DNA from: an uncultured Azospirillum sp.
Lineage (GTDB): Bacteria; Pseudomonadota; Alphaproteobacteria; Rickettsiales; UBA3002
Direction: 5' to 3'
DNA length: 64,000 bases
Assembly: GCA_964530085.1 (NCBI GenBank)
Contig: CAZGXX010000007.1
Location: 1,410 to 65,409 of the forward strand
Position numbers and translations under genes: made by a program. Below the pieces are notes generated by a model. That model saw only the letters and a program-made list of their open reading frames with translations. It was not told the DNA's origin and did no database searches. Below, piece after piece: positions 3,061 through 52,302 of this stretch (its first letter is position 1; the number at the start of each line of letters is the position of its first letter).

Positions 3061-4929
3061 TCAACCAGCATCATCCGCGCTGGCGAGGGTTTCGAGCAGC
3101 TCCCACCGTGCGAGGGCGGCCTCGAGCTCGGCCTGCTTGCGGGCGAGGCTGCGGGCGGTTTTGTCGAATCGCTCGGCATCTTGCGTGTAGAGGGTCGGGT
3201 CTTCCATCTGCGCAACGAGCGCTGCGACCTCGCTTTCGAGCAGCGCAATTTTCTCCGGTAGTTTTTTGAGCTCATGCTGTTGGCCAAAGCTGAGCGCGGG
3301 TTTTGCCACTTCGATTTTCGGCGCGATGGGTTTCGCCATCGGTGCGACGATCGCTGCGGCATCGCCATGGCTCAGCGATTTTCCGGCGCGTTTGGCGGTT
3401 TTTGCGGCGAGGTAATCGCTATAACCGCCGATATGGGTTTCGATTTCTGCGTTGCCCTCGAACGCCATCACCTCGGTCACCGTGCGGTCGAGGAAGTCGC
3501 GGTCGTGGCTGACGATAATCAGCGTGCCCGCATAGTTGGCGAGAATTTCTTGCAGCATATCGAGCGTGTCCATGTCGAGGTCGTTGGTCGGCTCGTCGAG
3601 GATCATTAGGTTGCCGGGATTGATGAGCGTGCGCGCCAGCATCAGCCGGTTTTGCATGCCACCGGAGAGCGTGCCCACATCGTCGCGTGCGCGTTTGGGG
3701 TCGAACAGAAAACTTTTGAGATAGGCCGCTACATGGCGCGGTTTGCTGCGGTCACCACTGAGGAACACGTAATCGCCATTCGGCGCCAGCGTGTGCCATA
3801 GCGTTTTGCGTGGGTCGAGCGCGATGCGGTGCTGATCGAAATAGGCGAGCTCAATTTTTTTGCTGCGGTGAATGAAGCCGCTATCGGCCTCGAGTTCGCC
3901 CATCAGCAGTTTGAGGAAGGTGGATTTACCGGAGCCATTGCGCCCCAGAATGCCAATGCGATCGCCACGCACAATGCGCAGTGAAAAGTCGTTGAGGATA
4001 GGAATTTTTTTGCCCTCACGCGCGAAGCTTTTGCTGACATGCTTGAACTCCGCCACGATTTTTGAGGCGGGGGGTGGCGCGAGTGGGTCCACCTCTATCG
4101 CGCTGGTTTTTTCATTGAGTGCGGCTTTCTCGACCCGCAATTTCGCGCGCAGGCGATGTAGCTCGTTTAGGCGACGCTGGTTGCGTTTTCGGCGCGCGGT
4201 GACACCGCCTTGTGTCCAGTCGAGTTCGCTTTCGACCTTTTTGTTCATGTTGTGCAGCGCGCGCTGTTCCTGCTCTAAAATTGCTGCCGCCCAGGCATCG
4301 AACCCGCCATAGCCATGCGGGCAGATGCGCACGCGGCCTTGCTCCAGCCAGAAGGTGCGGCTGGTGAAATTGGCGAGGAAGGTACGGTCATGGCTGACAC
4401 ACACCACCGCGCTGCGGCTGCGGGCGAGGAATTGCTCCAGCCACTCGATTGCTTCGAGGTCAAGATGGTTGGTCGGCTCGTCGAGCAGCAGAATATCGGG
4501 TTCGTCGACGAGCGCCTGTGCGAGCGCTGCACGACGCAACTGCCCGCCGGAGAGATGCCCCATCAGTGCGTCGGGATCGAGCGAAAGCGGTTGCAGCACC
4601 TGATCGGCGCGGTAGGTCATATCGAGATGTTCCGCCGCTGCACCTGCCAAACCATCCGCCACAAACTCGCGCACCGTTTGCTGCGGATGAAACGCCACGT
4701 TCTGCGCGAGATAGCCGATACGCGCGCCCGGAAACACAAAACGCTTTCCGGAATCAAGCTCCAACTCTTGCATAATCAGGCGCATGAGCGTGGTTTTGCC
4801 CGCGCCGTTGCGGCCAATCAGGCACACCTTGTCGCCTTCATAAATATGCAGGTCGATACCCTCGAACAGCAGGCGGCTGCCGATGGTCATGTGAATATCG
4901 TCGAGGCCGAGGATTAGCTTTTTGCTCAT
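3061..4929 (-). CDS. ABC-F family ATPase, Uup-like
   Basis: GRNGAGKTT and GRNGSGKST Walker A motifs, LSGGQLRR and LSGGMQNR signatures, and a C-terminal coiled coil. Sits in tandem with the previous ABC-F gene. Confidence 0.9.
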   Translation of the reverse strand: MSKKLILGLDDIHMTIGSRLLFEGIDLHIYEGDKVCLIGRNGAGKTTLMRLIMQELELDSGKRFVFPGARIGYLAQNVAFHPQQTVREFVADGLAGAAAEHLDMTYRADQVLQPLSLDPDALMGHLSGGQLRRAALAQALVDEPDILLLDEPTNHLDLEAIEWLEQFLARSRSAVVCVSHDRTFLANFTSRTFWLEQGRVRICPHGYGGFDAWAAAILEQEQRALHNMNKKVESELDWTQGGVTARRKRNQRRLNELHRLRAKLRVEKAALNEKTSAIEVDPLAPPPASKIVAEFKHVSKSFAREGKKIPILNDFSLRIVRGDRIGILGRNGSGKSTFLKLLMGELEADSGFIHRSKKIELAYFDQHRIALDPRKTLWHTLAPNGDYVFLSGDRSKPRHVAAYLKSFLFDPKRARDDVGTLSGGMQNRLMLARTLINPGNLMILDEPTNDLDMDTLDMLQEILANYAGTLIIVSHDRDFLDRTVTEVMAFEGNAEIETHIGGYSDYLAAKTAKRAGKSLSHGDAAAIVAPMAKPIAPKIEVAKPALSFGQQHELKKLPEKIALLESEVAALVAQMEDPTLYTQDAERFDKTARSLARKQAELEAALARWELLETLASADDAG

Positions 4930-7177: not shown

Positions 7178-8488
7178 ATGCGACAGATGGATCTCCTGAA
7201 AACCAAACGGTTTCTGCCGTTATTTCTCACGCAATTCCTCGGCTCGTTTAACGATAACATGTTCCGCAGCGCACTCGCGGTGCTGATTACCTACCAGTTC
7301 ACCGGCAGCTCCATTCCGTGGCTCACCGCGGGGGTGATGGTGGCGCTTTGCTCGACCTTGCTGGTAATTCCATTCCCCATCCTTTCGCCTATCGCCGGTC
7401 AGCTTGCGGATAAATACAACAAAGCGCGGCTGATCACCTGGATCAAAATCTCCGAAGTCATCATTATGGCCATCGCCGCCTATGGCTTCACGCATGACCA
7501 GATTTATCTGCTCATGGGGTTGTTACTGATGTCGGGTGTGCATTCGGCTTTCTTTGGCCCCATTAAATACAGCATTCTCTCCGACCATTTGAGCGAGGAG
7601 GAATTACTCCCCGGCAACAGCCTGATCGCGAGCGGCACCTACGCCTCGGTGTTGGCCGGGCTGATTCTCGGTGGGCTGCTCGTTGAGTATGATCGCGGCG
7701 GTGAATGGATCGGCTATGTTCTGATGGCTGGCGCGGTGGTGGGGCTCATTGCCAGCCGCTTCATTCCGCCAACCGTCCCGGCGGCGGCGGATCTTACCAT
7801 CCGCTACCATGTGGTGCGCGAGGCGATCGCGATCATCACGCAGGTGTGTGCCAACCGCCCGGTGATAGTCTCGATCCTTGGCCTGTCGTGGTTCCTGCTG
7901 ATTGCGGCAGTGTTCATGGGACAATTCCCCACCTTCGCCAAAGCGGTTGGTGGAGATAACGAGGTCTATACCTTATTCCTCGTGATTTTCTCGCTTGGCA
8001 CATCGTTCGGGTCGCTGCTCTGCAACCGTCTGCTCAAGGGTGAAATCTCGGCAAAATACACACCCGTAGCAGCATTTTTTATCTCGGTGTTCATCTTTGC
8101 TATGGTGACAAGCGCACCTGCGCCGACCGATCATCTCGTGGGCGCATGGGAATTTATTTCTCACCCCTCCTACTGGCCGATGATACTGTCGATGTGGGGC
8201 ATGGCGGTGGCAGGCGGTGTCTATATCGTGCCGCTCTACACCATCATGCAAACCCGGTCAGAAGCCAAGTGCCGCTCGCGTATTATCGCCGCACGGAATG
8301 TGATAAATTCAGCATGTATTACGCTGGCGATGCTTATCAGCGCCGGACTTTTAGCAGCCGGACTTGATGTCTTCGAATTATCCATCATCATTGCCGTCAC
8401 GAACCTAGGCGTGGTGGTGCGCAGCTATACGTTGCTGCCAGAAATGCAACCAAAAACCGTCGCGGCGATCCGCGAAATGACGAGGTAG
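7178..8488 (+). CDS. MFS transporter, LplT-like (lysophospholipid transporter family)
   Basis: 12-TM profile. FFGPIKYSILSDHLSEEELLPGNSL and VPLYTIMQTRSE resemble the LplT segments SPAKYGILGELT...ANGL and VVPLNALLQERG. Confidence 0.7.
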   Translation: MRQMDLLKTKRFLPLFLTQFLGSFNDNMFRSALAVLITYQFTGSSIPWLTAGVMVALCSTLLVIPFPILSPIAGQLADKYNKARLITWIKISEVIIMAIAAYGFTHDQIYLLMGLLLMSGVHSAFFGPIKYSILSDHLSEEELLPGNSLIASGTYASVLAGLILGGLLVEYDRGGEWIGYVLMAGAVVGLIASRFIPPTVPAAADLTIRYHVVREAIAIITQVCANRPVIVSILGLSWFLLIAAVFMGQFPTFAKAVGGDNEVYTLFLVIFSLGTSFGSLLCNRLLKGEISAKYTPVAAFFISVFIFAMVTSAPAPTDHLVGAWEFISHPSYWPMILSMWGMAVAGGVYIVPLYTIMQTRSEAKCRSRIIAARNVINSACITLAMLISAGLLAAGLDVFELSIIIAVTNLGVVVRSYTLLPEMQPKTVAAIREMTR

Positions 8489-16287: not shown

Positions 16288-16620
16288 TTAACGCGTCTGA
16301 CTCTGCGTTTCAAGATAGGCTTTGTAGCCTTTGTCGAAGCGACGCATGCTTTCAGGTGTAGTGATTGTGATTTCAGTCTGGTGCCCTTGTGCGCAGTTGG
16401 GGTCTATCGTTTTTATCGCGTGATAAGGATCTTTCGCGTTCTTAGCATCGTGGAAAAAGTCAGCGATGATCTCCTGATTCTCTTTTAAGCGATAATTGAG
16501 ATTCAGACGAAATGTAAGCCCATCCCCACACCCCGCAATGCTGCTGCAATCTACGGCTTCGTAGAACTTGGTTTGGAGTGCGGCGGTATCCGCGTCGATG
16601 GTGTTTTTTGCCTCTTGCAT
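16288..16620 (-). CDS. hypothetical protein (orphan, lower GC)
   Basis: ORF 16288..16632. ATG at 16620 has a GGGAAG SD-like sequence, and the alternative start is 16632. No family recognised. Preceded by the box element at 16674-16695. Confidence 0.5.
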   Translation of the reverse strand: MQEAKNTIDADTAALQTKFYEAVDCSSIAGCGDGLTFRLNLNYRLKENQEIIADFFHDAKNAKDPYHAIKTIDPNCAQGHQTEITITTPESMRRFDKGYKAYLETQSQTR

Positions 16621-16673
16621 AGCGCTTCCCATAAGAACTTCGAGATTAACTATAGCAAATTCAGCGGATGTTT

Positions 16674-16721: not shown

Positions 16722-18227
16722 CTAGTGATTGATCCGTTTCTTGTGCTTTTCGAAGGGGTTATTGCTTTCCTTCAGAATCAGCCGGATGGGGGTGCCGTTG
16801 AGGCCGAACGTGCTGCGTAGCCCAGCGGTGAGGTAGCGCAGGTAGGATTCGGGGAATTCCTCGGCCATGTTGCAGAACAGGTGGAACGTCGGCGGGCGCG
16901 CCTTCACCTGCGTGATATATTTGATTTTGAGGCGGCGGCCACGCACCAGCGGCGGGCTGTGATGGGCGAGGGTTTCCTCCAGCCAGCGGTTCATGGCGGC
17001 GGTGGGCACGCGGCGGTTCCACACCTCGCGCGTGGTGAGGCAGGCGTTGAGCAGCGCATCCATCCCCACCTTGTTAAGGGCAGAAACCGGTGCCACCGTA
17101 ATGCCCGCGAGCTGCGAGAGCTGCTTGCCCAGCATATACTCGATTTCCTCGAGCAGCGCTTTGCGTTCGCCGGGTTTGATGAGGTCCCACTTGTTGAGGC
17201 CGATGACGCAGGCGCGCCCCTCGCGCTCGACGAGGGAGGCCAGCGTGGCGTCCTGCTTCTCGAGCGGCGCGGTGGCATCGATGAGGATGACGACGACCTC
17301 GGCGAAGGTCAGCGCGCGGATGGAGTCGCTCACCGCCAGCTTCTCGATTTTCCCCTGCACGTTGGCGCGTTTGCGCATGCCCGCCGTGTCGTGCAGCGTG
17401 AACTTGGTGCCGTGATAGTCAAACGGAATGGCGATGGTGTCGCGCGTGATGCCCGCTTCGGGCCCGACCAGCAGGCGGTCTTCGCCGATGAGGGCGTTGA
17501 CCAGCGTGGATTTCCCCGCATTCGGGCGGCCGAGGATGACGAGGTTGATGGGTTTGGTAGAGGTGGCCGGTGGCTGGTGGCCGGTGGCCAGTGATTCTTC
17601 GTCTTGTTCGATTGCCTCTTCAAACGGTGCATCCGGCGTGACTTTCGCGGCACGTTTTGGTTTTTTCTTCCGCTTCTCTTTTGCGGCACTGGCCACTGGC
17701 CACTGGCCACCGGCCACCGCTTCTCCCTCCATCATCTCCCGCAGCACGTCGTATAAATCGCCCAGCCCCTCGCCATGCTCGGCCGAAAGCAGCACGATGG
17801 GCGTAAAACCGAGCGAGTAAATATCCCCCGCCGCGTTGGCACGGCTCGATTCCGCCTTGTTGGCGATGAGGATCATCGGCTTGTTCGACATGCGCACCAG
17901 CTTGGCAAAATGCGCGTCCATCGGCGTTACGCCCTCGCGCGCATCGATAACGAAGAGCAGGATATCGGCTTCGTCCATCGCGAGTTTGGTTTGCGCGAAC
18001 ATACGGGTGGCGAGCGCGTCGGGCGCGGCCTGCTCCATGCCTGCCGTGTCGATGAGGCGGAAGCGCAGGTCCGACAGCGAGGCATCCGCATAGCGGCGGT
18101 CACGCGTCACGCCCGGCTGGTCATCCACCAACGCCAGTCGCTTGCCGACGAGGCGGTTAAACAGCGTCGACTTGCCCACGTTCGGGCGGCCGATAATCGC
18201 GATCAGGGGGTGTGACGGAATGCTCAT
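16722..18227 (-). CDS. der: ribosome-associated GTPase Der/EngA
   Basis: Two GTPase domains (GRPNVGKSTLFN...DTAG...NKAE and GRPNAGKSTLVN...DTAG...NKWD) plus a KH-like C-terminal domain. Confidence 0.95.
   Translation of the reverse strand: MSIPSHPLIAIIGRPNVGKSTLFNRLVGKRLALVDDQPGVTRDRRYADASLSDLRFRLIDTAGMEQAAPDALATRMFAQTKLAMDEADILLFVIDAREGVTPMDAHFAKLVRMSNKPMILIANKAESSRANAAGDIYSLGFTPIVLLSAEHGEGLGDLYDVLREMMEGEAVAGGQWPVASAAKEKRKKKPKRAAKVTPDAPFEEAIEQDEESLATGHQPPATSTKPINLVILGRPNAGKSTLVNALIGEDRLLVGPEAGITRDTIAIPFDYHGTKFTLHDTAGMRKRANVQGKIEKLAVSDSIRALTFAEVVVILIDATAPLEKQDATLASLVEREGRACVIGLNKWDLIKPGERKALLEEIEYMLGKQLSQLAGITVAPVSALNKVGMDALLNACLTTREVWNRRVPTAAMNRWLEETLAHHSPPLVRGRRLKIKYITQVKARPPTFHLFCNMAEEFPESYLRYLTAGLRSTFGLNGTPIRLILKESNNPFEKHKKRINH
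17562..17719. repeat. inverted-repeat element embedded in frame in the der inter-domain linker
   Basis: The 32-nt arms at 17562-17593 (GGTGGCCGGTGGCTGGTGGCCGGTGGCCAGTG) and 17688-17719 match 29/32 as reverse complements. Each arm is 4 tandem (G/A)GTGGCC heptamers, and the spacer is 94 nt. Confidence 0.7.
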
Positions 18228-18294
18228 CCGCCGCTTATAGCAGCGATTTGGCTTAGGGGAAGGGGGAATCTGGGGGTGATGGCGCGTAGATTAG

Positions 18295-19347
18295 TTATGC
18301 CAAGTCATCTTTTCTTATGGCCCTGAGGCGGTTCATGGAGCTAACTCCGTATGGCGTTAGCCTCCAGTATGTCCCTTTGTCATTTACACTTCTATTCTTT
18401 TTTTCACTTTGTGTAATTAGGCCAAGAGCACTCAATTGTATTAAAACGGTCTCGAAATCTTGTATTAACGGGGTAACGCTTCTTATATTGCCGTGACCCT
18501 CAAAGCTTTTCTTTTTTGGCATTTCTATTTTTAGCCTCTTTGCAACCAGTTCATAAAACCTGTTCTGTAATTCAAAAGTTTTTGCTTCATGTATCATCAA
18601 AGGAGAAAGTTCAGAAAACAGTACGTTCCAGCTAACCCTAACGCTATCGTTCCAAGTCCATGCTTGATTGTCAGCTTTTGTCTCTGAATCAAATTTGACA
18701 TTTATGATGAATTTATCTTCACCTTGGGCAAGATCTTCCGTCCCCTTGGGACCCTTAGTTTGAGATGAGTTGATCTCTGATTCTAGTTCCTCTATTCTTT
18801 TTCGAAGACTGAGGATTTCTAGGGATGCATCTTTGCTTAATGTTTGGTTGCCTTTAACCCAACCGATGCCAGGATGTTGTTTTTGCAGACTTACTAAGCT
18901 GCGGCTGACAACAGATCCGAGTTCTTGAGCTGTTGTCCAGTATTTACACATCTTTTTCTCAGCAAGCTCACGAAACTCTTTTAATTTTTCGCGTGCAGCT
19001 TCAGAAGACTCACAATTCTTTGCAGGTAAGGCACTTGGGTCCTTATGTAGAAATCCTATTACGGGCTTTCCTTTTTCGAGAGCGTATCGATACTCCATTT
19101 CAGTGTAACTTATTCCCTGTGAGCCAACCGAGCCATATCTACCACCGATGACAACTATGTAATAATCGCAGTCATCAATAACGCCTTTGATTAATGACCA
19201 TTGATCTTCATTAGCAGCTGGAAACATTTCCATTCCGGATGGAATACAATCAAGCTCTAATAATGCATGCATGATTTCTTGGCGCTCTGGCTGTAGGTCT
19301 TGATAAGTAGAGCTCACAAAAACCTGATATTTTTTATCTACACTCAT
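18295..19347 (-). CDS. DUF4062 (TIR-like fold) domain protein with a coiled coil and an uncharacterised C-terminal domain
   Basis: Trimmed to MSVDKKYQVFVSSTYQDLQPERQEIMHALLELDCIPSGMEMFPA...DYYIVVIGGRYGS, the DUF4062 signature. The gene is visibly AT-rich compared with its flanks. Confidence 0.7.
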   Translation of the reverse strand: MSVDKKYQVFVSSTYQDLQPERQEIMHALLELDCIPSGMEMFPAANEDQWSLIKGVIDDCDYYIVVIGGRYGSVGSQGISYTEMEYRYALEKGKPVIGFLHKDPSALPAKNCESSEAAREKLKEFRELAEKKMCKYWTTAQELGSVVSRSLVSLQKQHPGIGWVKGNQTLSKDASLEILSLRKRIEELESEINSSQTKGPKGTEDLAQGEDKFIINVKFDSETKADNQAWTWNDSVRVSWNVLFSELSPLMIHEAKTFELQNRFYELVAKRLKIEMPKKKSFEGHGNIRSVTPLIQDFETVLIQLSALGLITQSEKKNRSVNDKGTYWRLTPYGVSSMNRLRAIRKDDLA

Positions 19348-19367
19348 GAATAAACTCTCTAATTTCA

Positions 19368-19444
19368 TGGCGCGCCCAGCAGGACTCGAACCTGCAACCG
19401 CTCGCTTAGAAGGCGAGTGCTCTATCCAGTTGAGCTATGGGCGC
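19368..19444 (-). tRNA. tRNA-Arg (anticodon UCU)
   Basis: Hand fold of GCGCCCA TA GCTC AACTGGATA GAGC A CTCGC CTTCTAA GCGAG CGGTT GCAGG TTCGAGT CCTGC TGGGCGC G CCA. 77 nt. Confidence 0.9.
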
Positions 19445-19482
19445 GTGGGGCTCTTATAGGTGTAACAGGCGTAGCTGCCAAG

Positions 19483-19624
19483 AATATTGCGCTTCATTCT
19501 GTCATCCCCGCGTAGGCGGGGATCCAGTCCCTGCTCGCGCGGCACTGGCCGGGATGACAGTTTATGTGCGCCAAAGACTTGGCGCGCTGGATGCCCGCCT
19601 GCGCGGGCATGACAAATATTGCGC
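19483..19624. mobile_element. MITE-like palindromic element flanked by a 10-bp direct repeat
   Basis: AATATTGCGC occurs at 19483-19492 and again at 19615-19624. The interior starts at TGTCATCCCCGCG (19500) and ends at CGCGGGCATGACA (19614). It holds perfect hairpins ATCCCCGC/GCGGGGAT and ATGCCCGC/GCGGGCAT. Confidence 0.6.
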
Positions 19625-19674
19625 GGGGGGGGCAAAGCTGCTAGTCACGCGGGCTTGAACCTTGGGAGAGCCCT

Positions 19675-20568
19675 ATGAACCAGACCCCCTACACCATCGG
19701 CATCGTGCAAATGGCGATGCACCCGACCGACAGCAACGCGAATATGGAGCGCGCGATTCACTGGCTGCGCGAGGCGAAAAAGCAAGGCGTGCAGGTGGCC
19801 TGTTTGCCGGAGCTGTTCCTCTCCCCCTATTTCTGCCAGAGCGAGAACCATGATTTCTTCGCCCTCGCGGAGGCGATTCCGGGGCCATCCACGGACACGC
19901 TCGGCAAGGTGGCGAAGGAGCTCGATATGGTCATCGTCGCGAGCCTGTTCGAGCGGCGCACGGCGGGGATGTATCATAATACGACCGCGGTGATCGATGC
20001 GGACGGGACGTATCTCGGCAAATACCGCAAGATGCATATCCCGGATGATCCGCGCTTCTACGAGAAATTCTACTTCACGCCGGGTGATTTGGGCTTCAAG
20101 AATTTCGACACGAAATATGGCCGCATCGGCGTGCTGATCTGCTGGGATCAATGGTTCCCGGAAGCGGCGCGGCTGACCGCCATGCAGGGCGCGAGCGTGA
20201 TTTTCTACCCCACCGCGATCGGTTGGCACCCGGCGGAGAAAGCTGAATACGGCGAAGAGCAATGGCAGAAATGGCAGACCGTGCAGCGCGGCCACGCGGT
20301 GGCGAACAATATCTTCGTCGCCTCGCCTAACCGCATCGGGCTCGAGACGCACGGCGACAACGGCGCGCTTGAATTCTTCGGCCATAGCTTCATTTGCGAC
20401 ACCTCCGGGCGCTATATCCAGCAGGTGGATGAGAAATTCGAGGGCGTGCTCACCGCCGTCATCGACCCGAAAAAAGTCGAGAAGCAGCGCCAGTACTGGC
20501 CGTATTTCCGCGACCGCCGCATCGAGCATTACGGCGCATTAACGCAGCATCCGAGCGAAGAGGCATAA
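19675..20568 (+). CDS. aguB: N-carbamoylputrescine amidase (CN-hydrolase)
   Basis: CLPELF...YRKMHIPDDPRFYEKFYFTPGD...VLICWDQWFPEAAR, the nitrilase-superfamily E-K-C triad context. Confidence 0.9.
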   Translation: MNQTPYTIGIVQMAMHPTDSNANMERAIHWLREAKKQGVQVACLPELFLSPYFCQSENHDFFALAEAIPGPSTDTLGKVAKELDMVIVASLFERRTAGMYHNTTAVIDADGTYLGKYRKMHIPDDPRFYEKFYFTPGDLGFKNFDTKYGRIGVLICWDQWFPEAARLTAMQGASVIFYPTAIGWHPAEKAEYGEEQWQKWQTVQRGHAVANNIFVASPNRIGLETHGDNGALEFFGHSFICDTSGRYIQQVDEKFEGVLTAVIDPKKVEKQRQYWPYFRDRRIEHYGALTQHPSEEA

Positions 20569-21612
20569 ATGGACTACGCGCAATTTCAAATGCCTGCTGA
20601 ATGGGCGCCGCAGAAACGCATCTGGCTGAGCTGGCCGCACGCACGCGCCGACTGGCCGGGTAAATTCGCGCCGGTGCCGTGGGTGTTTGCCGAGATGGTG
20701 CGGGTGATTACCGGCAGTGGCCAACGCGTCGGCCTGCTGGTGAAAGACCAGAAAATCCGCGCGGAGGCGATGGAAATGCTCGACCGCAGCGGTGTATCGC
20801 TTTCGATGGTCGATATGCTCGAGGTGAAAACCAACCGCGGCTGGCTGCGTGATTGCGGCCCCATCTGGGTGAAAGACGGCATGGGCGGCTATACCGCGCT
20901 CAACTGGAAATTCACCGGCTGGGCAAAATACGCGAATCACAAACTCGATAACGACGTGCCGGATCAAATCGCGGATTTCACGAAAGACGACTCGCTGGAA
21001 CCGACCGCGAACGACAAGCATATCGTGCTCGAAGGCGGCGGGATTGAGGTGGATGGCGCAGGCAGTATTATTGTGACGGAAGAATGGTTGTTGTCGGATA
21101 CGCAAATCCGCAACAAGAAATTCACGCGGGAAGATTACGAGCTGCTGTTCGATCATTATCTCGGCGCGCCGAATGTGATCTGGCTCGGCAAAGGCATCGT
21201 CGGCGACGACACGCACGGCCATGTGGATGACATCACCCGCTTTGTCGCGCCGGGGAAAATTGTGACGGTGGTGGAGAGCGACAAGAAGGATGCGAACTAC
21301 GCGCTTTTACAAGACAATCTAAAACGCCTGCGCGCCGCGCGCGATGCGAAGGGCAAACCGTTCGAGGTGATCGAACTGCCGATGCCGCGCCCGGTGATGT
21401 TCGAAGGCCAGCGCCTGCCCGCGAGCTACGCGAACTTCCTCATCTGCAACAAAGTGGTGCTGGTGCCGGTGTTCAACGACGTGGCGGACAAGGAAGCGCT
21501 ACGCATTCTGCAGGAATGTTTCCCGAAACGCGAGGTGGTCGGCATCTATGCGCGCGACCTGGTGTGGGGGCTGGGAACGATCCACTGCCTCACGCAGCAG
21601 GAGCCGTTATAG
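20569..21612 (+). CDS. aguA: agmatine deiminase
   Basis: MPAEWAPQKRIWLSWPH...DCGPIWV...HVDD...GTIHCLTQQEP, with the catalytic Cys near the C-terminus. Confidence 0.9.
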   Translation: MDYAQFQMPAEWAPQKRIWLSWPHARADWPGKFAPVPWVFAEMVRVITGSGQRVGLLVKDQKIRAEAMEMLDRSGVSLSMVDMLEVKTNRGWLRDCGPIWVKDGMGGYTALNWKFTGWAKYANHKLDNDVPDQIADFTKDDSLEPTANDKHIVLEGGGIEVDGAGSIIVTEEWLLSDTQIRNKKFTREDYELLFDHYLGAPNVIWLGKGIVGDDTHGHVDDITRFVAPGKIVTVVESDKKDANYALLQDNLKRLRAARDAKGKPFEVIELPMPRPVMFEGQRLPASYANFLICNKVVLVPVFNDVADKEALRILQECFPKREVVGIYARDLVWGLGTIHCLTQQEPL

Positions 21613-21621
21613 CGTGTCAGC

Positions 21622-22134
21622 CTACTTACTCTTCCCAAGCAGCGCAGTTACATCAAGGCGATTCTCTGGGCAGAGTGCCTTGTTGAATTGCGTGAGAATA
21701 TCAGCCAGCGAATTGGCGGAGAACGGGTAGACGTTATAGTTGGCAGGTCGAGACGCACAAGAATCATCTAACTCGCTTTTTGACTGCCGGTCTCTGAGTT
21801 TGAAGGTGCTGTTGCTTTTATAATCCTCAGGATTGACATCAAGCCCAACAGGCATAGGGGCGTCACTTTTTAACCCGTCAATTAGGCCTTCTAATTCCGG
21901 AACTCTCTTATCTACCTTCACTGCATCTACTGGGAACTCTATTTCTCCGAGAATTTTGGTGCCCATCTTCTTCAGTCTCAGATGTACGTTTCTCAATTTT
22001 TCCGGTTTGTCATACCCGCGGTCAATCAAATCCGCGTGGATAGCTGTTTCGAGTGCTCCCTGTACTTTCTTCAGAATCTTACCTCGCTCAAGGGCGGCTT
22101 GGACAACGGCGCTCTGTTCATCATATGGCGGCAT
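21622..22134 (-). CDS. hypothetical protein (orphan, lower GC)
   Basis: 170-aa ORF with AGGAG 6 nt upstream of the ATG. No family recognised. Preceded by the box element at 22191-22212. Confidence 0.55.
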   Translation of the reverse strand: MPPYDEQSAVVQAALERGKILKKVQGALETAIHADLIDRGYDKPEKLRNVHLRLKKMGTKILGEIEFPVDAVKVDKRVPELEGLIDGLKSDAPMPVGLDVNPEDYKSNSTFKLRDRQSKSELDDSCASRPANYNVYPFSANSLADILTQFNKALCPENRLDVTALLGKSK

Positions 22135-22190
22135 AGATACTCCTTTGATTTGATTAATGGAGCCATCCTAACAAAGCCGCTGCCGTCTGT

Positions 22191-22212
22191 GTGTGAAGAT
22201 TTGATGACAATT
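22191..22212 (-). promoter_or_regulatory. Pho-box-like direct-repeat element (variant copy 2)
   Basis: In gene orientation the sequence is AATTGTCATCAAATCTTCACAC. TAGGAT follows 22 nt downstream. This 22-mer is identical to the one at 42332-42353. Confidence 0.4.
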
Positions 22213-22236
22213 TTTTCTGATAGATAAATCAGTCGC

Positions 22237-23622
22237 TTAAATCTTCACTCCGCCCGCGCTGAGGGCGCGGTGCATGGCGTGCATGACGCGGGCGAGGGAG
22301 TCGGCGCAGTGGCCTTCGGCGCGGGCGACGAGCACGGCCTGCGTGTTGCTGGCGCGGGCGAGCCACCAGCCATCCGCCGTGGTGACGCGCACACCGTCGA
22401 GCGTGTTGACGGTCGCGCCCTCGGCGGCCAGCGCAGCGGCCATGGCGGTGATGACGGCGAATTTTTTATCATCCGCGCAGGGAATGCGAATCTCCGGCGA
22501 GGCGAACAGCGGCGGCAATGTATCCACCAGTTCGCTGAGTTTTTTGCCGGACTCAGCGACGATGCGCAGCAGGCGCAGCGCGGCATACAGCCCGTCATCG
22601 AACCCATAATATTCATCTGCGAAGAAGATATGGCCGCTGGCCTCGCCCGCGAATTTCGCGCCGGTTTCGGCGAGTTTGGTTTTGATATGCGCGTGCCCCG
22701 TCATCCACATCAGCGGCGCGCCACCCTTGGCAGCTACTTCTTTAAAGAAACTATCCGAAGTTTTGACATCCGCAATGATGCCCGCGCCGGGGTGACGTGA
22801 AAGTACGTCATTCGCTAGCAGCATGAGGATGTGATCGGGCGAGAGTGGCCGCCCCTTATCATCCACCGCGCCCATACGGTCGCCATCGCCATCGAACGCG
22901 AAGCCCATATGCAGCGTGCCCGCACGTTCGGAAATCGCGGCCTGTAACGCCTCGAGGTTATGTGGGTCGGCTGGGTCCGGGTGGTGGTTGGGGAACGTGC
23001 CATCCACCTCGAGAAAGAGTTTTTCGTGCCGCGTTTTGTTGAGCTTCAGCAATTCTTCGACCACGATGCCGGCGGCGCCATTGCCGGCGTCCCACGCCAC
23101 GGGGTGGGTGGTGAGCAGATCACCGCCGAGGGCTTTTTTCAGCTCGAACACATATTCGTCGAGCATGTCGACTTCCTCGCGCTGCCCGCGCGAATGCAGG
23201 AGATTATTTTGTTCGACCCGCGTGCGCAGATTGGCCAACTCCGCGCCATAGAGTGATTTCCCGTCGCACATGAATTTCGCGCCGTTATGGTTTGGCGGGT
23301 TGTGCGAACCGGTGATCATCACGCTGCCATCCGCATTCAAATGATGGGTGGCGAAATAGCACATCGGTGTGGGGCCCATGCCACCATCAAGCACATGCGC
23401 GCCCGCTTTGAGCATGCCTTCGACCATCGCTTCGGCAAGGTTCGGTGAGCTTTCGCGCCCGTCACGCATTACCACGATCAATGGCGTGCGGGTCTGGCAT
23501 TTATCGGCCACGTGGCTGGCGAAGGCCTGACCGATGCTGAGGAAATCGGCGGCTTCAAGGGTTTCGCCGACAATGCCGCGCACGTCATAGGCGCGGAAGA
23601 GGGATGCGTTGGGGAGGTGCAT
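22237..23622 (-). CDS. phosphomannomutase/phosphoglucomutase
   Basis: The active-site loop TGSHNPPNHNG, the metal loop FDGDGDR, and the GEASGH sugar-binding loop. Confidence 0.9.
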   Translation of the reverse strand: MHLPNASLFRAYDVRGIVGETLEAADFLSIGQAFASHVADKCQTRTPLIVVMRDGRESSPNLAEAMVEGMLKAGAHVLDGGMGPTPMCYFATHHLNADGSVMITGSHNPPNHNGAKFMCDGKSLYGAELANLRTRVEQNNLLHSRGQREEVDMLDEYVFELKKALGGDLLTTHPVAWDAGNGAAGIVVEELLKLNKTRHEKLFLEVDGTFPNHHPDPADPHNLEALQAAISERAGTLHMGFAFDGDGDRMGAVDDKGRPLSPDHILMLLANDVLSRHPGAGIIADVKTSDSFFKEVAAKGGAPLMWMTGHAHIKTKLAETGAKFAGEASGHIFFADEYYGFDDGLYAALRLLRIVAESGKKLSELVDTLPPLFASPEIRIPCADDKKFAVITAMAAALAAEGATVNTLDGVRVTTADGWWLARASNTQAVLVARAEGHCADSLARVMHAMHRALSAGGVKI

Positions 23623-51192: not shown

Positions 51193-51267
51193 TGGAGCGG
51201 GCGAAGAGATTCGAACTCTCGACATTCACCTTGGCAAGGTGACACTCTACCACTGAGCTACGCCCGC
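51193..51267 (-). tRNA. tRNA-Gly (anticodon GCC)
   Basis: Hand fold of GCGGGCG TA GCTC AGTGGTA GAGT G TCACC TTGCCAA GGTGA ATGTC GAGAG TTCGAAT CTCTT CGCCCGC T CCA. 75 nt. Confidence 0.9.
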
Positions 51268-51422: not shown

Positions 51423-51617
51423 TTAACGCATGGCGACGAGTGAGGCATTGCTGACCTTCACCGTCGTGCTCGCCGCAACCACTTCGTCCCACTTGATCGT
51501 AGCCATTTGCTGCGAGGTTGGAGTGATGAGCGTGGCTGTCGATGTTTTCTCCGCACAAGCGCTACACAGGAGCGCGGCGGTGAGTGCCATCATCCCTATC
51601 CATTTGCTATGCGTCAT
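51423..51617 (-). CDS. small putative exported/lipoprotein (64 aa)
   Basis: Trimmed to MTHSKWIGMMALTAALLCSACAEK, with GGAG 6 nt upstream. The lipobox is not canonical and the region is low in GC. Confidence 0.35.
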   Translation of the reverse strand: MTHSKWIGMMALTAALLCSACAEKTSTATLITPTSQQMATIKWDEVVAASTTVKVSNASLVAMR

Positions 51618-52095
51618 TGTCATCTCCGTTTTTGGCAGTTTTGTGTGCCTGAAGATGTTATGTGCGATGCAGCAATCAAAGAGTAGCGCAGGTTTGACAG
51701 CCCAGCCATGCAATAAAAGCATGGATAAATTTAAATTATGTATTTCAATGTTCTCCTGCGAATAAGGCAACGTGGTAAGGTCGTCGATTTAGCTCGATTG
51801 TTCTCGTTTCCCCTGCCCATGCCTCCCAAGGGCGTGCTGTGGATTGATTAAATAATAAATTGACTTCTCGAGAAAATACTCTATCAACGTCGCTGAGTAT
51901 TCTCTACATTCTTTGCATATGCCGGCTGCATCTAACACTTACTAGCAGCGTATCTACCGATACATAACGATCCACCCAGGTTGATCTCGACAGCGTTTGA
52001 TTTAAGAATAGCCGATCACGTATTCGGACGGAAATTCTCAAAAAACGTGGCTCATTCCGGGCTGCGTCAACGCTTTACTTGTCTAGGAGACAACA

Positions 52096-52302
52096 ATGGC
52101 TAACGGTACTGTAAAATGGTTCAACCCAACTAAAGGCTTCGGCTTCATCCAACCTGATCAAGGTGGCACCGATGTGTTCGTACACATCAGCGCGCTCGAA
52201 AAAGCGGGCCTGCGCTCGCTCGATGAAGGCCAGAAAGTCAGCTACGAGCTCGTGACCGATAAGGGTAAGACCTCGGCTGGCAATCTGAAGCTCGCTGCTT
52301 AA
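52096..52302 (+). CDS. cspA: cold-shock protein (CspA family)
   Basis: [15 protein letters not shown] (RNP1) and DVFVHISAL (RNP2). 68 aa. The upstream non-coding region is more than 300 nt. Confidence 0.95.

Follow-up and report, generated by a model that had tools for sequence, protein, structure and literature searches.

swz, a single-gene Swarozyc homologue inserted at the 3′ end of tRNA-Arg in an uncultured freshwater alphaproteobacterium

The DNA considered here is a stretch of 64,000 nucleotides (hereafter, the window) from contig CAZGXX010000007.1 of an uncultured freshwater alphaproteobacterium. Between tRNA-Arg(UCU) and the essential gene der it carries one minus-strand gene, here termed swz, whose product is by sequence a full-length homologue of Swarozyc (Swz), a known family published in 2026. 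swz was acquired horizontally, as seen from its exact insertion, its foreign composition, and the empty site in a sister genome, and it most likely provides a single-gene abortive-infection defence of the Swarozyc type. What a preliminary description of this DNA had raised as a possible stand-alone module is thus a member of that family. The family, structure, and mechanism are already published; the new elements are an integrase-less single-gene insertion and the integron-cassette context of the relatives of swz.

Relationship of swz to the Swarozyc family

DUF4062 was described by Osinski et al. (bioRxiv 10.64898/2026.05.01.722283) as a TIR-like NADase, and single-gene proteins that join it to an AUX domain were named Swarozyc. 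Swarozyc guards E. coli from many BASEL phages through abortive infection. Defence by the Klebsiella pneumoniae protein KpSwz (PDB 10wc/11cq/11cv) depends on E97 and on AUX, and infection lowers the level of nicotinamide adenine dinucleotide (NAD+). KpSwz escape mutations lie in the portal gene, and the portal triggers hydrolysis of NAD+ to ADP-ribose (ADPR) and nicotinamide in vitro. By cryo-electron microscopy (cryo-EM), KpSwz forms autoinhibited head-to-head TIR-like dimers with intertwined helical stalks, in which the AB dimer interface departs from the AE type of canonical TIRs, and as many as 13 AUX domains of winged-helix fold surround the dodecameric portal (all from the same preprint). 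Two further studies address the same domain. Le Mouellic et al. (bioRxiv 10.64898/2026.09.04.749371) renamed it NIR and reported NAD+ depletion by Avs2-NIR, Vulcan, and Vesta, with Vulcan sensing a small lambda protein. Ibarra-Chavez et al. (bioRxiv 10.64898/2026.06.25.731849) described Evangelion, which requires F11, E87, and W162; its representative Eva01 associates with recombination-like DNA, and activation is tied to NAD+ depletion.

The only long open reading frame (ORF) in the region, 18295..19368 on the minus strand, encodes 357 residues when counted from its first ATG, which shares the last base of tRNA-Arg. Translation probably starts at the downstream ATG 19347 (MSVDKKYQVF...), which sits 20 nt past the tRNA 3′ end and follows the purine run AGAGAG. 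The resulting 350-residue protein (19347..18295, minus strand) is also the form found in NCBI data. Its parts are as follows.

18868..19347, minus strand: residues 1-160, predicted DUF4062 (NIR) TIR-like NADase domain (Pfam, KpSwz alignment, model)
19093-19095, minus strand: codon of the putative catalytic Glu85, aligned with the KpSwz E97A position
18751..18867, minus strand: residues 161-199, a conserved GIGW segment followed by the predicted stalk helix 172-197 (model)
18298..18750, minus strand: residues 200-350, predicted AUX sensor domain with beta-hairpin 212-239, helical core, and wing YWRLTPYG (BLASTP, AlphaFold2, Foldseek)
18295..18297, minus strand: stop codon TAA within GCATAAC (sequence reading)

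Similarity to KpSwz extends over the entire protein. A phmmer search of PDB sequences returned the entries designated "KpSwz TIR/DUF4062" (10wc_A, 11cq, 11cv) at E 6e-64, pairing query residues 9-352 with residues 1-323 of the 326-residue chain, and BLASTP aligned the two proteins at 37% identity and 58% positives over 350 columns (E 7e-78). The only PDB match of a profile built from 38 homologues, an alignment that includes the window protein itself, was KpSwz (E 1.7e-83, full length of both). The preliminary assignment of the N-terminal domain to DUF4062 is borne out by a Pfam match at residues 15-96 (E 3e-29) that covers the PF13271 model in full (1-82) and by structural matches to TIR domains given below. 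When AUX was compared on its own with KpSwz AUX, BLASTP matched residues 4-127 of the 127-residue segment at 26% identity (E 2e-11). The protein therefore has the Swarozyc sensor domain in common with KpSwz, beyond the general DUF4062 effector.

The residues on which the published proteins depend are largely retained. HMMER and BLASTP both align E85 of swz with the alanine of the deposited KpSwz E97A chain, and E85 is invariant across the 38 homologues, inside a T-E-x-E-Y motif. F10 and W163 are also invariant in this set and correspond to Eva01 F11 and W162, as E85, with Y86 next to it, does to Eva01 E87; W163 is in addition equivalent to KpSwz W176, part of the intertwined region beneath the TIR domains. 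In the wing motif YWRLTPYG, for which KpSwz has NWKLSPKG, residues W328, L330, and G334 are invariant in all 38 homologues.

Structure models show an N-terminal TIR-like fold and a winged-helix fold in AUX. The full-length AlphaFold2 model (predicted local distance difference test (pLDDT) 78) places five beta-alpha units at residues 8-157, a long helix at 172-197, a long beta-hairpin at 212-239, and a helical C-terminal part; the helix that follows the TIR-like domain agrees with the coiled coil that had been proposed from the sequence. Foldseek searches of the PDB ranked TIR domains first, namely those of RPS4 (4c6t_D, E 6e-5, template modelling score on the target (TM(target)) 0.64), L6, SARM1, and the SPARTA TIR-APAZ protein, followed by the nucleoside N-glycosidases CMP N-glycosidase BcmB and DNPH1. 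No KpSwz entry was among the Foldseek matches from the PDB library used, which ends in April 2026. AUX modelled alone reached a pLDDT of 92.3 and a predicted template modelling score (pTM) of 0.85, with a hairpin, a helical core, and a wing. Its top Foldseek matches were solely winged-helix proteins (MukE/F, TubR, PadR/LmrR, MarR, and forkhead), at weak scores (E at least 9e-3, TM(target) at most 0.58). The winged-helix-like character suggested earlier for the C-terminal domain of about 150 residues is upheld on these grounds.

Two alternative family assignments were rejected. A Pfam scan at E ≤ 1 gave only DUF4062 and a spurious tropomyosin match, which sets swz apart from the canonical TIR family (Pfam TIR/TIR_2); in view of the TIR-like Foldseek matches, the likeness to TIR is therefore structural only. 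Membership in the Eva01-type Evangelion group was set aside as well, because the Staphylococcus plasmid proteins among the matches listed (201 Staphylococcus records matched in all) cover query residues 6-129, or about 35% of the query.

Acquisition of swz and the insertion site

The composition of swz is foreign to its surroundings. The content of guanine plus cytosine (GC) is 40.3% in the gene, compared with 62.7% in der, 59.6% in aguB, and 56.7% in the 64-kb window, of which the swz stretch is the lowest-GC 1,080 bp; the AT-richness judged by eye in the preliminary description is thereby confirmed. The comparison of codon usage that it had proposed gave a GC3 (GC at third codon positions) of 0.356 for swz and of about 0.81 for der and aguB. 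AGA and AGG together account for 10 of the 17 arginine codons of swz and for a single codon among about 2,040 in five host genes. Each of the two occurs five times in swz, and AGA occurs not at all and AGG once in the host genes checked; tRNA-Arg(UCU), directly upstream of swz, reads AGA. ATA (n = 11) and TTA (n = 10) are likewise frequent in swz and occur zero to two times in each host gene checked.

The closest genome found, through a Der-protein scan of species-representative genomes, is a Lake Mendota metagenome-assembled genome labelled "Rickettsiales bacterium" (locus L001), with a Der protein 89% identical and flanks of 86-88% nucleotide identity. Its site is empty: tRNA-Arg(UCU) is followed by 52 bp and then by der, and the tRNA gene is identical to that of the window over 78 nt (100%). 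Alignment of the two loci defines the insert to the base pair.

19368..19444, minus strand: tRNA-Arg (anticodon tct; UCU), intact, with CCA encoded (ARAGORN; Rfam RF00005, 71.6 bits)
19367..19374, minus strand: left copy of an 8-bp direct repeat, CGCGCCAT, made up of the final 7 nt of the tRNA (including CCA) and a T (junction alignment)
18287..19366, minus strand: foreign insert of 1,080 bp, GC 39.9%, consisting of a 19-nt leader, one ORF, and 8 nt past the stop codon (L001 alignment)
19348..19366, minus strand: the 19-nt leader, GAAATTAGAGAGTTTATTC, with a Shine-Dalgarno-like purine-rich AGAGAG at 19355-19360 (sequence reading)
18279..18286, minus strand: right copy of the 8-bp direct repeat, CGCGCCAT (junction alignment with L001)
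18228..18278, minus strand: native tRNA-der spacer, moved 1,088 bp off the tRNA (aligns with L001 5950-6000, one mismatch)
Empty-site junction, L001 (minus-strand reading): ...GGGCGCGCCAT / CACCCCCAGATT...
Left junction, window (minus strand): ...GGGCGCGCCAT / GAAATTAGAG...
Right junction, window (minus strand): ...CTAATCTA / CGCGCCAT CACCCCCAGATT...

The earlier proposal of horizontal acquisition at the 3′ end of tRNA-Arg accordingly stands, with junctions at 18287 and 19366, foreign composition and codon usage, and an empty site in the closest genome found. The 8-bp repeat, which had been offered as weak evidence of a junction remnant, gains in weight, since both copies coincide exactly with the insertion junctions in the L001 alignment. 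As the 8-mer ATGGCGCG (18279-18286 and 19367-19374), it recurs often across the window (10 copies on the plus strand and 9 as the reverse complement); the chance of an 8-nt identity at two random positions is about 3e-5, because of which the exact junction identity is not attributed to chance. The insertion displaced der by 1,088 bp from tRNA-Arg.

Also in keeping with the preliminary description, swz stands alone: the 1,080-bp insert holds this single ORF and no integrase, recombinase, or partner gene. The notion of a classic landing site holds in part. Of the features of tRNA-targeting islands, insertion at the 3′ end and a direct repeat that restores the tRNA are present, and the part that implied an integrase-borne island fails, as no integrase is encoded in the insert.

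The occupied and empty sites differ by one repeat copy, a pattern that fits precise excision equally well, so that the occupied site could be ancestral and swz lost from the L001 lineage by exact deletion between the 8-bp repeats. Such a history is fairly improbable. L001 is the only informative relative for the site: the L002 locus has no tRNA and is not similar to the window in the sequence that precedes der, while the flank of L003 is too short to serve as an outgroup, so neither offers the tRNA-der arrangement or flank needed for polarity. A GC3 of 0.36 in a host of 0.81, with no amelioration seen, nevertheless argues for a recent arrival, and because the repeats themselves stem from an earlier insertion, swz would be foreign under either history.

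Several routes of insertion are conceivable: a recombinase supplied in trans that uses an 8-bp core, duplication of an 8-bp target as in transposition, integration of a circular fragment by a single crossover at 8-bp microhomology, and illegitimate recombination anchored at the tRNA gene. The 8-bp duplication fits a non-autonomous element derived from an insertion sequence (IS), such as a miniature inverted-repeat transposable element (MITE) or mobile insertion cassette. The insert termini GAAATTAG and TAGATTAG match as an inverted repeat at just 6 of 8 positions (chance about 0.005, calculated post hoc), and a longer comparison gives 8 of 16, too weak to call terminal inverted repeats, and no second copy of the 1,080-bp element was found.

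Some features of the insert recall integron cassettes. The stop-codon context GCATAAC resembles the R″ box of attC sites (RYYYAAC) with one mismatch, and a TTAGAG box within the leader, 12 nt ahead of the ATG, is similar to the TTRRRY with which integron cassettes begin. No attC site lies downstream of swz, where the right repeat follows the stop codon after just 8 nt; sequence reading and home-made detectors that missed obvious sites gave no attC-like palindrome in 18100-19600. The three detectors performed no better than reversed-sequence controls, and their counts were dropped. The insert looks like an integron cassette stripped of its attC, a resemblance that is suggestive only.

Proposed function of swz and its alternatives

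Homology with KpSwz suggests that the swz protein is an NADase that acts in defence, that it is autoinhibited as an oligomer, and what its trigger may be. In the resting state, the protein would form an autoinhibited head-to-head oligomer, held together by the helical stalk, with BB loops lying over the active site. Once a phage infects, one of its structural proteins, most probably the portal (dodecameric in the case of KpSwz), would bind the AUX domains. This binding would realign the stalks and release the TIR-like domains, allowing the NADase to become active via E85, and the ensuing depletion of NAD+ would halt the infected cell and the phage.

The likeness to Swarozyc that underlies this scheme comprises the same full-length order of DUF4062 TIR-like domain, helical stalk, and winged-helix AUX, the retained catalytic Glu, the Trp equivalent to W176, and the C-terminal W-x-L-[ST]-P-x-G wing motif, as well as a single-gene, stand-alone, and horizontally mobile character. 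The two differ in host, a freshwater alphaproteobacterium for swz and an enterobacterium for KpSwz, and in setting, as swz stands by itself in a 1,080-bp insert beside a tRNA, outside any defence island. Evangelion (Eva01, from the S. aureus plasmid pMW2) has in common with swz the DUF4062 core with F, E-Y, and W (F10, E85-Y86, and W163 in swz), single-gene defence, and a requirement for the AUX region; its AUX, however, is unrelated, and its proposed trigger lies in phage replication or recombination functions rather than in the portal. PsAvs2-NIR, Vulcan, and Vesta share the DUF4062 domain as NIR effector, the catalytic Glu, and abortive NAD+ depletion. Their sensing parts are a STAND NTPase with TPR repeats in PsAvs2, HEAT repeats in Vulcan, and a small C-terminal domain with a phosphatase partner in Vesta, in place of which swz has a predicted stalk and winged-helix AUX. 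Thoeris ThsB/ThsA, SPARTA TIR-APAZ, and SARM1 resemble swz in their flavodoxin-like TIR fold, catalytic Glu, and activation based on oligomerisation, whereas DUF4062 is a separate sequence family with no Pfam TIR match.

Several observations weigh against this interpretation. The evidence for both protein and host consists of sequence and predicted structure, and identity to the characterised KpSwz is only 37% (26% in AUX). No defence island surrounds swz, the flanking genes being rsmE, gshA, der, a CN-hydrolase gene (aguB-type), an agmatine deiminase gene (aguA-type), and PGM/PMM (phosphoglucomutase/phosphomannomutase), all of them housekeeping. No promoter-like site lies ahead of the gene, which leaves its expression presumptive. 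PADLOC-DB 2023 and NCBIfam give no match to swz; both may predate the family, and this null is not counted against defence because the libraries are probably older than the family. Finally, the KpSwz hairpin-tip residues W238/Y239 are aligned by HMMER with K/A and by BLASTP with W230/T231, and so are not clearly conserved, and the wing loop of swz is about 10 residues longer than that of KpSwz. The trigger may therefore differ.

The last points bear on whether swz could be a DUF4062 defence with the same NADase and a trigger other than the portal, either DNA intermediates sensed at AUX, as for Eva01, or another phage protein, as for Vulcan. The winged-helix core of AUX is a fold that often binds DNA, the hairpin that anchors KpSwz to the portal is the most variable region of the 38-homologue alignment in addition to lacking a clearly conserved tip, and precedents exist in the link of Eva01 to recombination-like DNA and in the small lambda protein sensed by Vulcan. 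Against these stand the homology of AUX to KpSwz AUX along its whole length, the long beta-hairpin and alpha-loop-beta elements that KpSwz uses on the portal and that the predicted AUX keeps, and the restriction of the Eva01-type Staphylococcus plasmid proteins, among the matches listed, to query residues 6-129 alone. A non-portal trigger is on this balance quite unlikely.

Expression of swz probably occurs by read-through from the tRNA-Arg promoter, an arrangement deduced because the 19-nt leader is too short to house a promoter. A scan of the minus strand between the tRNA and der found neither a sigma-70-like promoter nor a terminator. The lack of its own promoter, the abundance of AGA, AGG, ATA, and TTA codons, which host genes hardly use, and the absence of adjoining defence genes would also suit an inert or decaying passenger, or a housekeeping role in nucleotide or NAD metabolism, with no phage protection in this host. 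This explanation is very improbable, however, given that the ORF is intact and full length, that swz lies directly behind the AGA-reading tRNA-Arg(UCU) in the same orientation with no terminator between them, and that the characterised bacterial proteins of this architecture are all defence proteins. All residues that are invariant in the 38-sequence alignment, including the catalytic Glu, are present in swz as well, although by construction, as the alignment includes swz. A Swarozyc-type defence thus remains the favoured function.

Homologues, integron contexts, and wider significance

Full-length homologues with 55-72% identity to swz occur in Vibrio, Yersinia, Pectobacterium, Burkholderia, Methylobacter, Bacteroidales, and Empedobacter. 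Their GC lies more than 5 points below that of the flanks at 24 of 38 loci. One homologue resides in an island with a DDE transposase, an integrase, and Zot, and another is found among housekeeping genes. The PHROG family phrog_15411 matches the full length of swz (E 3e-115); phage genomes yielded two weak N-terminal matches only. No conserved non-coding flanks were found among the homologues.

Direct repeats of at least 10 bp closely surround homologues at 12% of loci, compared with 2.7% in mismatched locus pairs, and on inspection these flanking repeats are integron attC sites. The assignment to integrons draws on repeat families in two loci, L119 and L061, and on sites read by eye in L039, L089, L106, and L116. 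In L119 (V. cholerae contig DAPYBA010000116.1, 1-4110), a homologue 64% identical to swz lies between attC repeats of the Vibrio cholerae repeat (VCR) type, in a cassette array of the superintegron type. In the metagenomic locus L061 (1410-5802), eight copies of a 60-nt attC are present, with the homologue between two of them. In both loci the attC follows the ORF downstream, and the R″ box contains or adjoins the stop codon in L061 and L119 and, as read by eye, in L039, L106, and L116. Integron cassettes that encode defence systems have already been published (Darracq et al., bioRxiv 10.1101/2024.07.02.601686), and the insert described here matches such cassettes in compactness and in the lack of a promoter, with the difference that it has no attC and sits at a tRNA 3′ end outside an integron. 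A text search of the Swarozyc and Evangelion preprints (10.64898/2026.05.01.722283 and 10.64898/2026.06.25.731849) found neither "integron" nor "cassette".

Adjacency to a tRNA was considered as a trait of the family and rejected, as a tRNA is in the vicinity at just 3 of the 60 metagenomic loci. The homologue closest to swz (72% identity; L120 1-165, and L121; Logan assembly) nevertheless starts 135 nt past a tRNA-like 3′ end, GGTTCGAATCCCTCCCTGTCCGCCA. In L120 a terminator-like palindrome comes after GGTTCGAATCCCTCCCTGTCCGCCA, and the contig is too short for a tRNA call.

It is conceivable, if somewhat improbable, that Swarozyc genes in general travel as minimal promoterless single-gene units, either as integron cassettes or, without an integrase of their own, through an 8-bp duplication at a tRNA CCA end that yields a tRNA-mRNA co-transcript.

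Other features of the window concern its intergenic sites and neighbouring genes. Two further AT-rich islets each hold a single minus-strand ORF: orf114 (16288..16632; islet at 16293-16664) and orf170 (21622..22134; islet at 21607-22237). L001 has AT-rich ORFs of unrelated sequence at the same intergenic sites (7545-7971 and 3289-3725), the one at the second site (orf170) in the opposite relative orientation. No Pfam match was obtained for orf114, orf170, or their L001 counterparts, and no PHROG match for orf114 or orf170. In this lineage, intergenic positions appear to act as hotspots where small foreign genes can be exchanged. The spacer upstream of tRNA-Arg (19445-19614) is also unrelated to its L001 equivalent. 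It contains the GC-rich palindromes CCCGCGTAGGCGGGGAT and CCCGCCTGCGCGGGCAT, unique in the window, inside nested inverted repeats at 19499-19600; a similar palindromic element follows the swz homologue of locus L122 (about 2730-2800).

The aguB-aguA segment (19615-21606) is 96% identical to L001 3726-5717, compared with 86-88% in adjoining segments, which could reflect recent recombination between lineages or stronger constraint. The coding region of der contains a 48-nt imperfect inverted repeat (17546-17593 / 17687-17734; 79% complementary, with an 18-nt perfect core) in the linker between its two GTPase domains, encoding GQWPVAS and ATGHQPPATS. A region of 44% GC at 51601-52150, a few hundred bp from tRNA-Gly(GCC) (51193..51267), holds small ORFs without Pfam matches.

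With swz, the range of Swarozyc reaches beyond enterobacteria and takes in an uncultured lineage of freshwater alphaproteobacteria. As PADLOC-DB 2023 and NCBIfam miss the gene, models for DUF4062/Swz are needed in pipelines that annotate defence. The two states of the site differ by exactly one gene with base-pair junctions and no recombinase, and so provide a clean case for the movement of single-gene defence, while the cassette-borne homologues tie the family to integrons as "defence biobanks". If the tentative idea of travel as minimal single-gene units is true, the islet would record a route by which cassette-borne defence genes pass from integrons into core-genome sites, and the unit in this genome would sit behind a tRNA that reads the host-rare AGA codons of swz itself.

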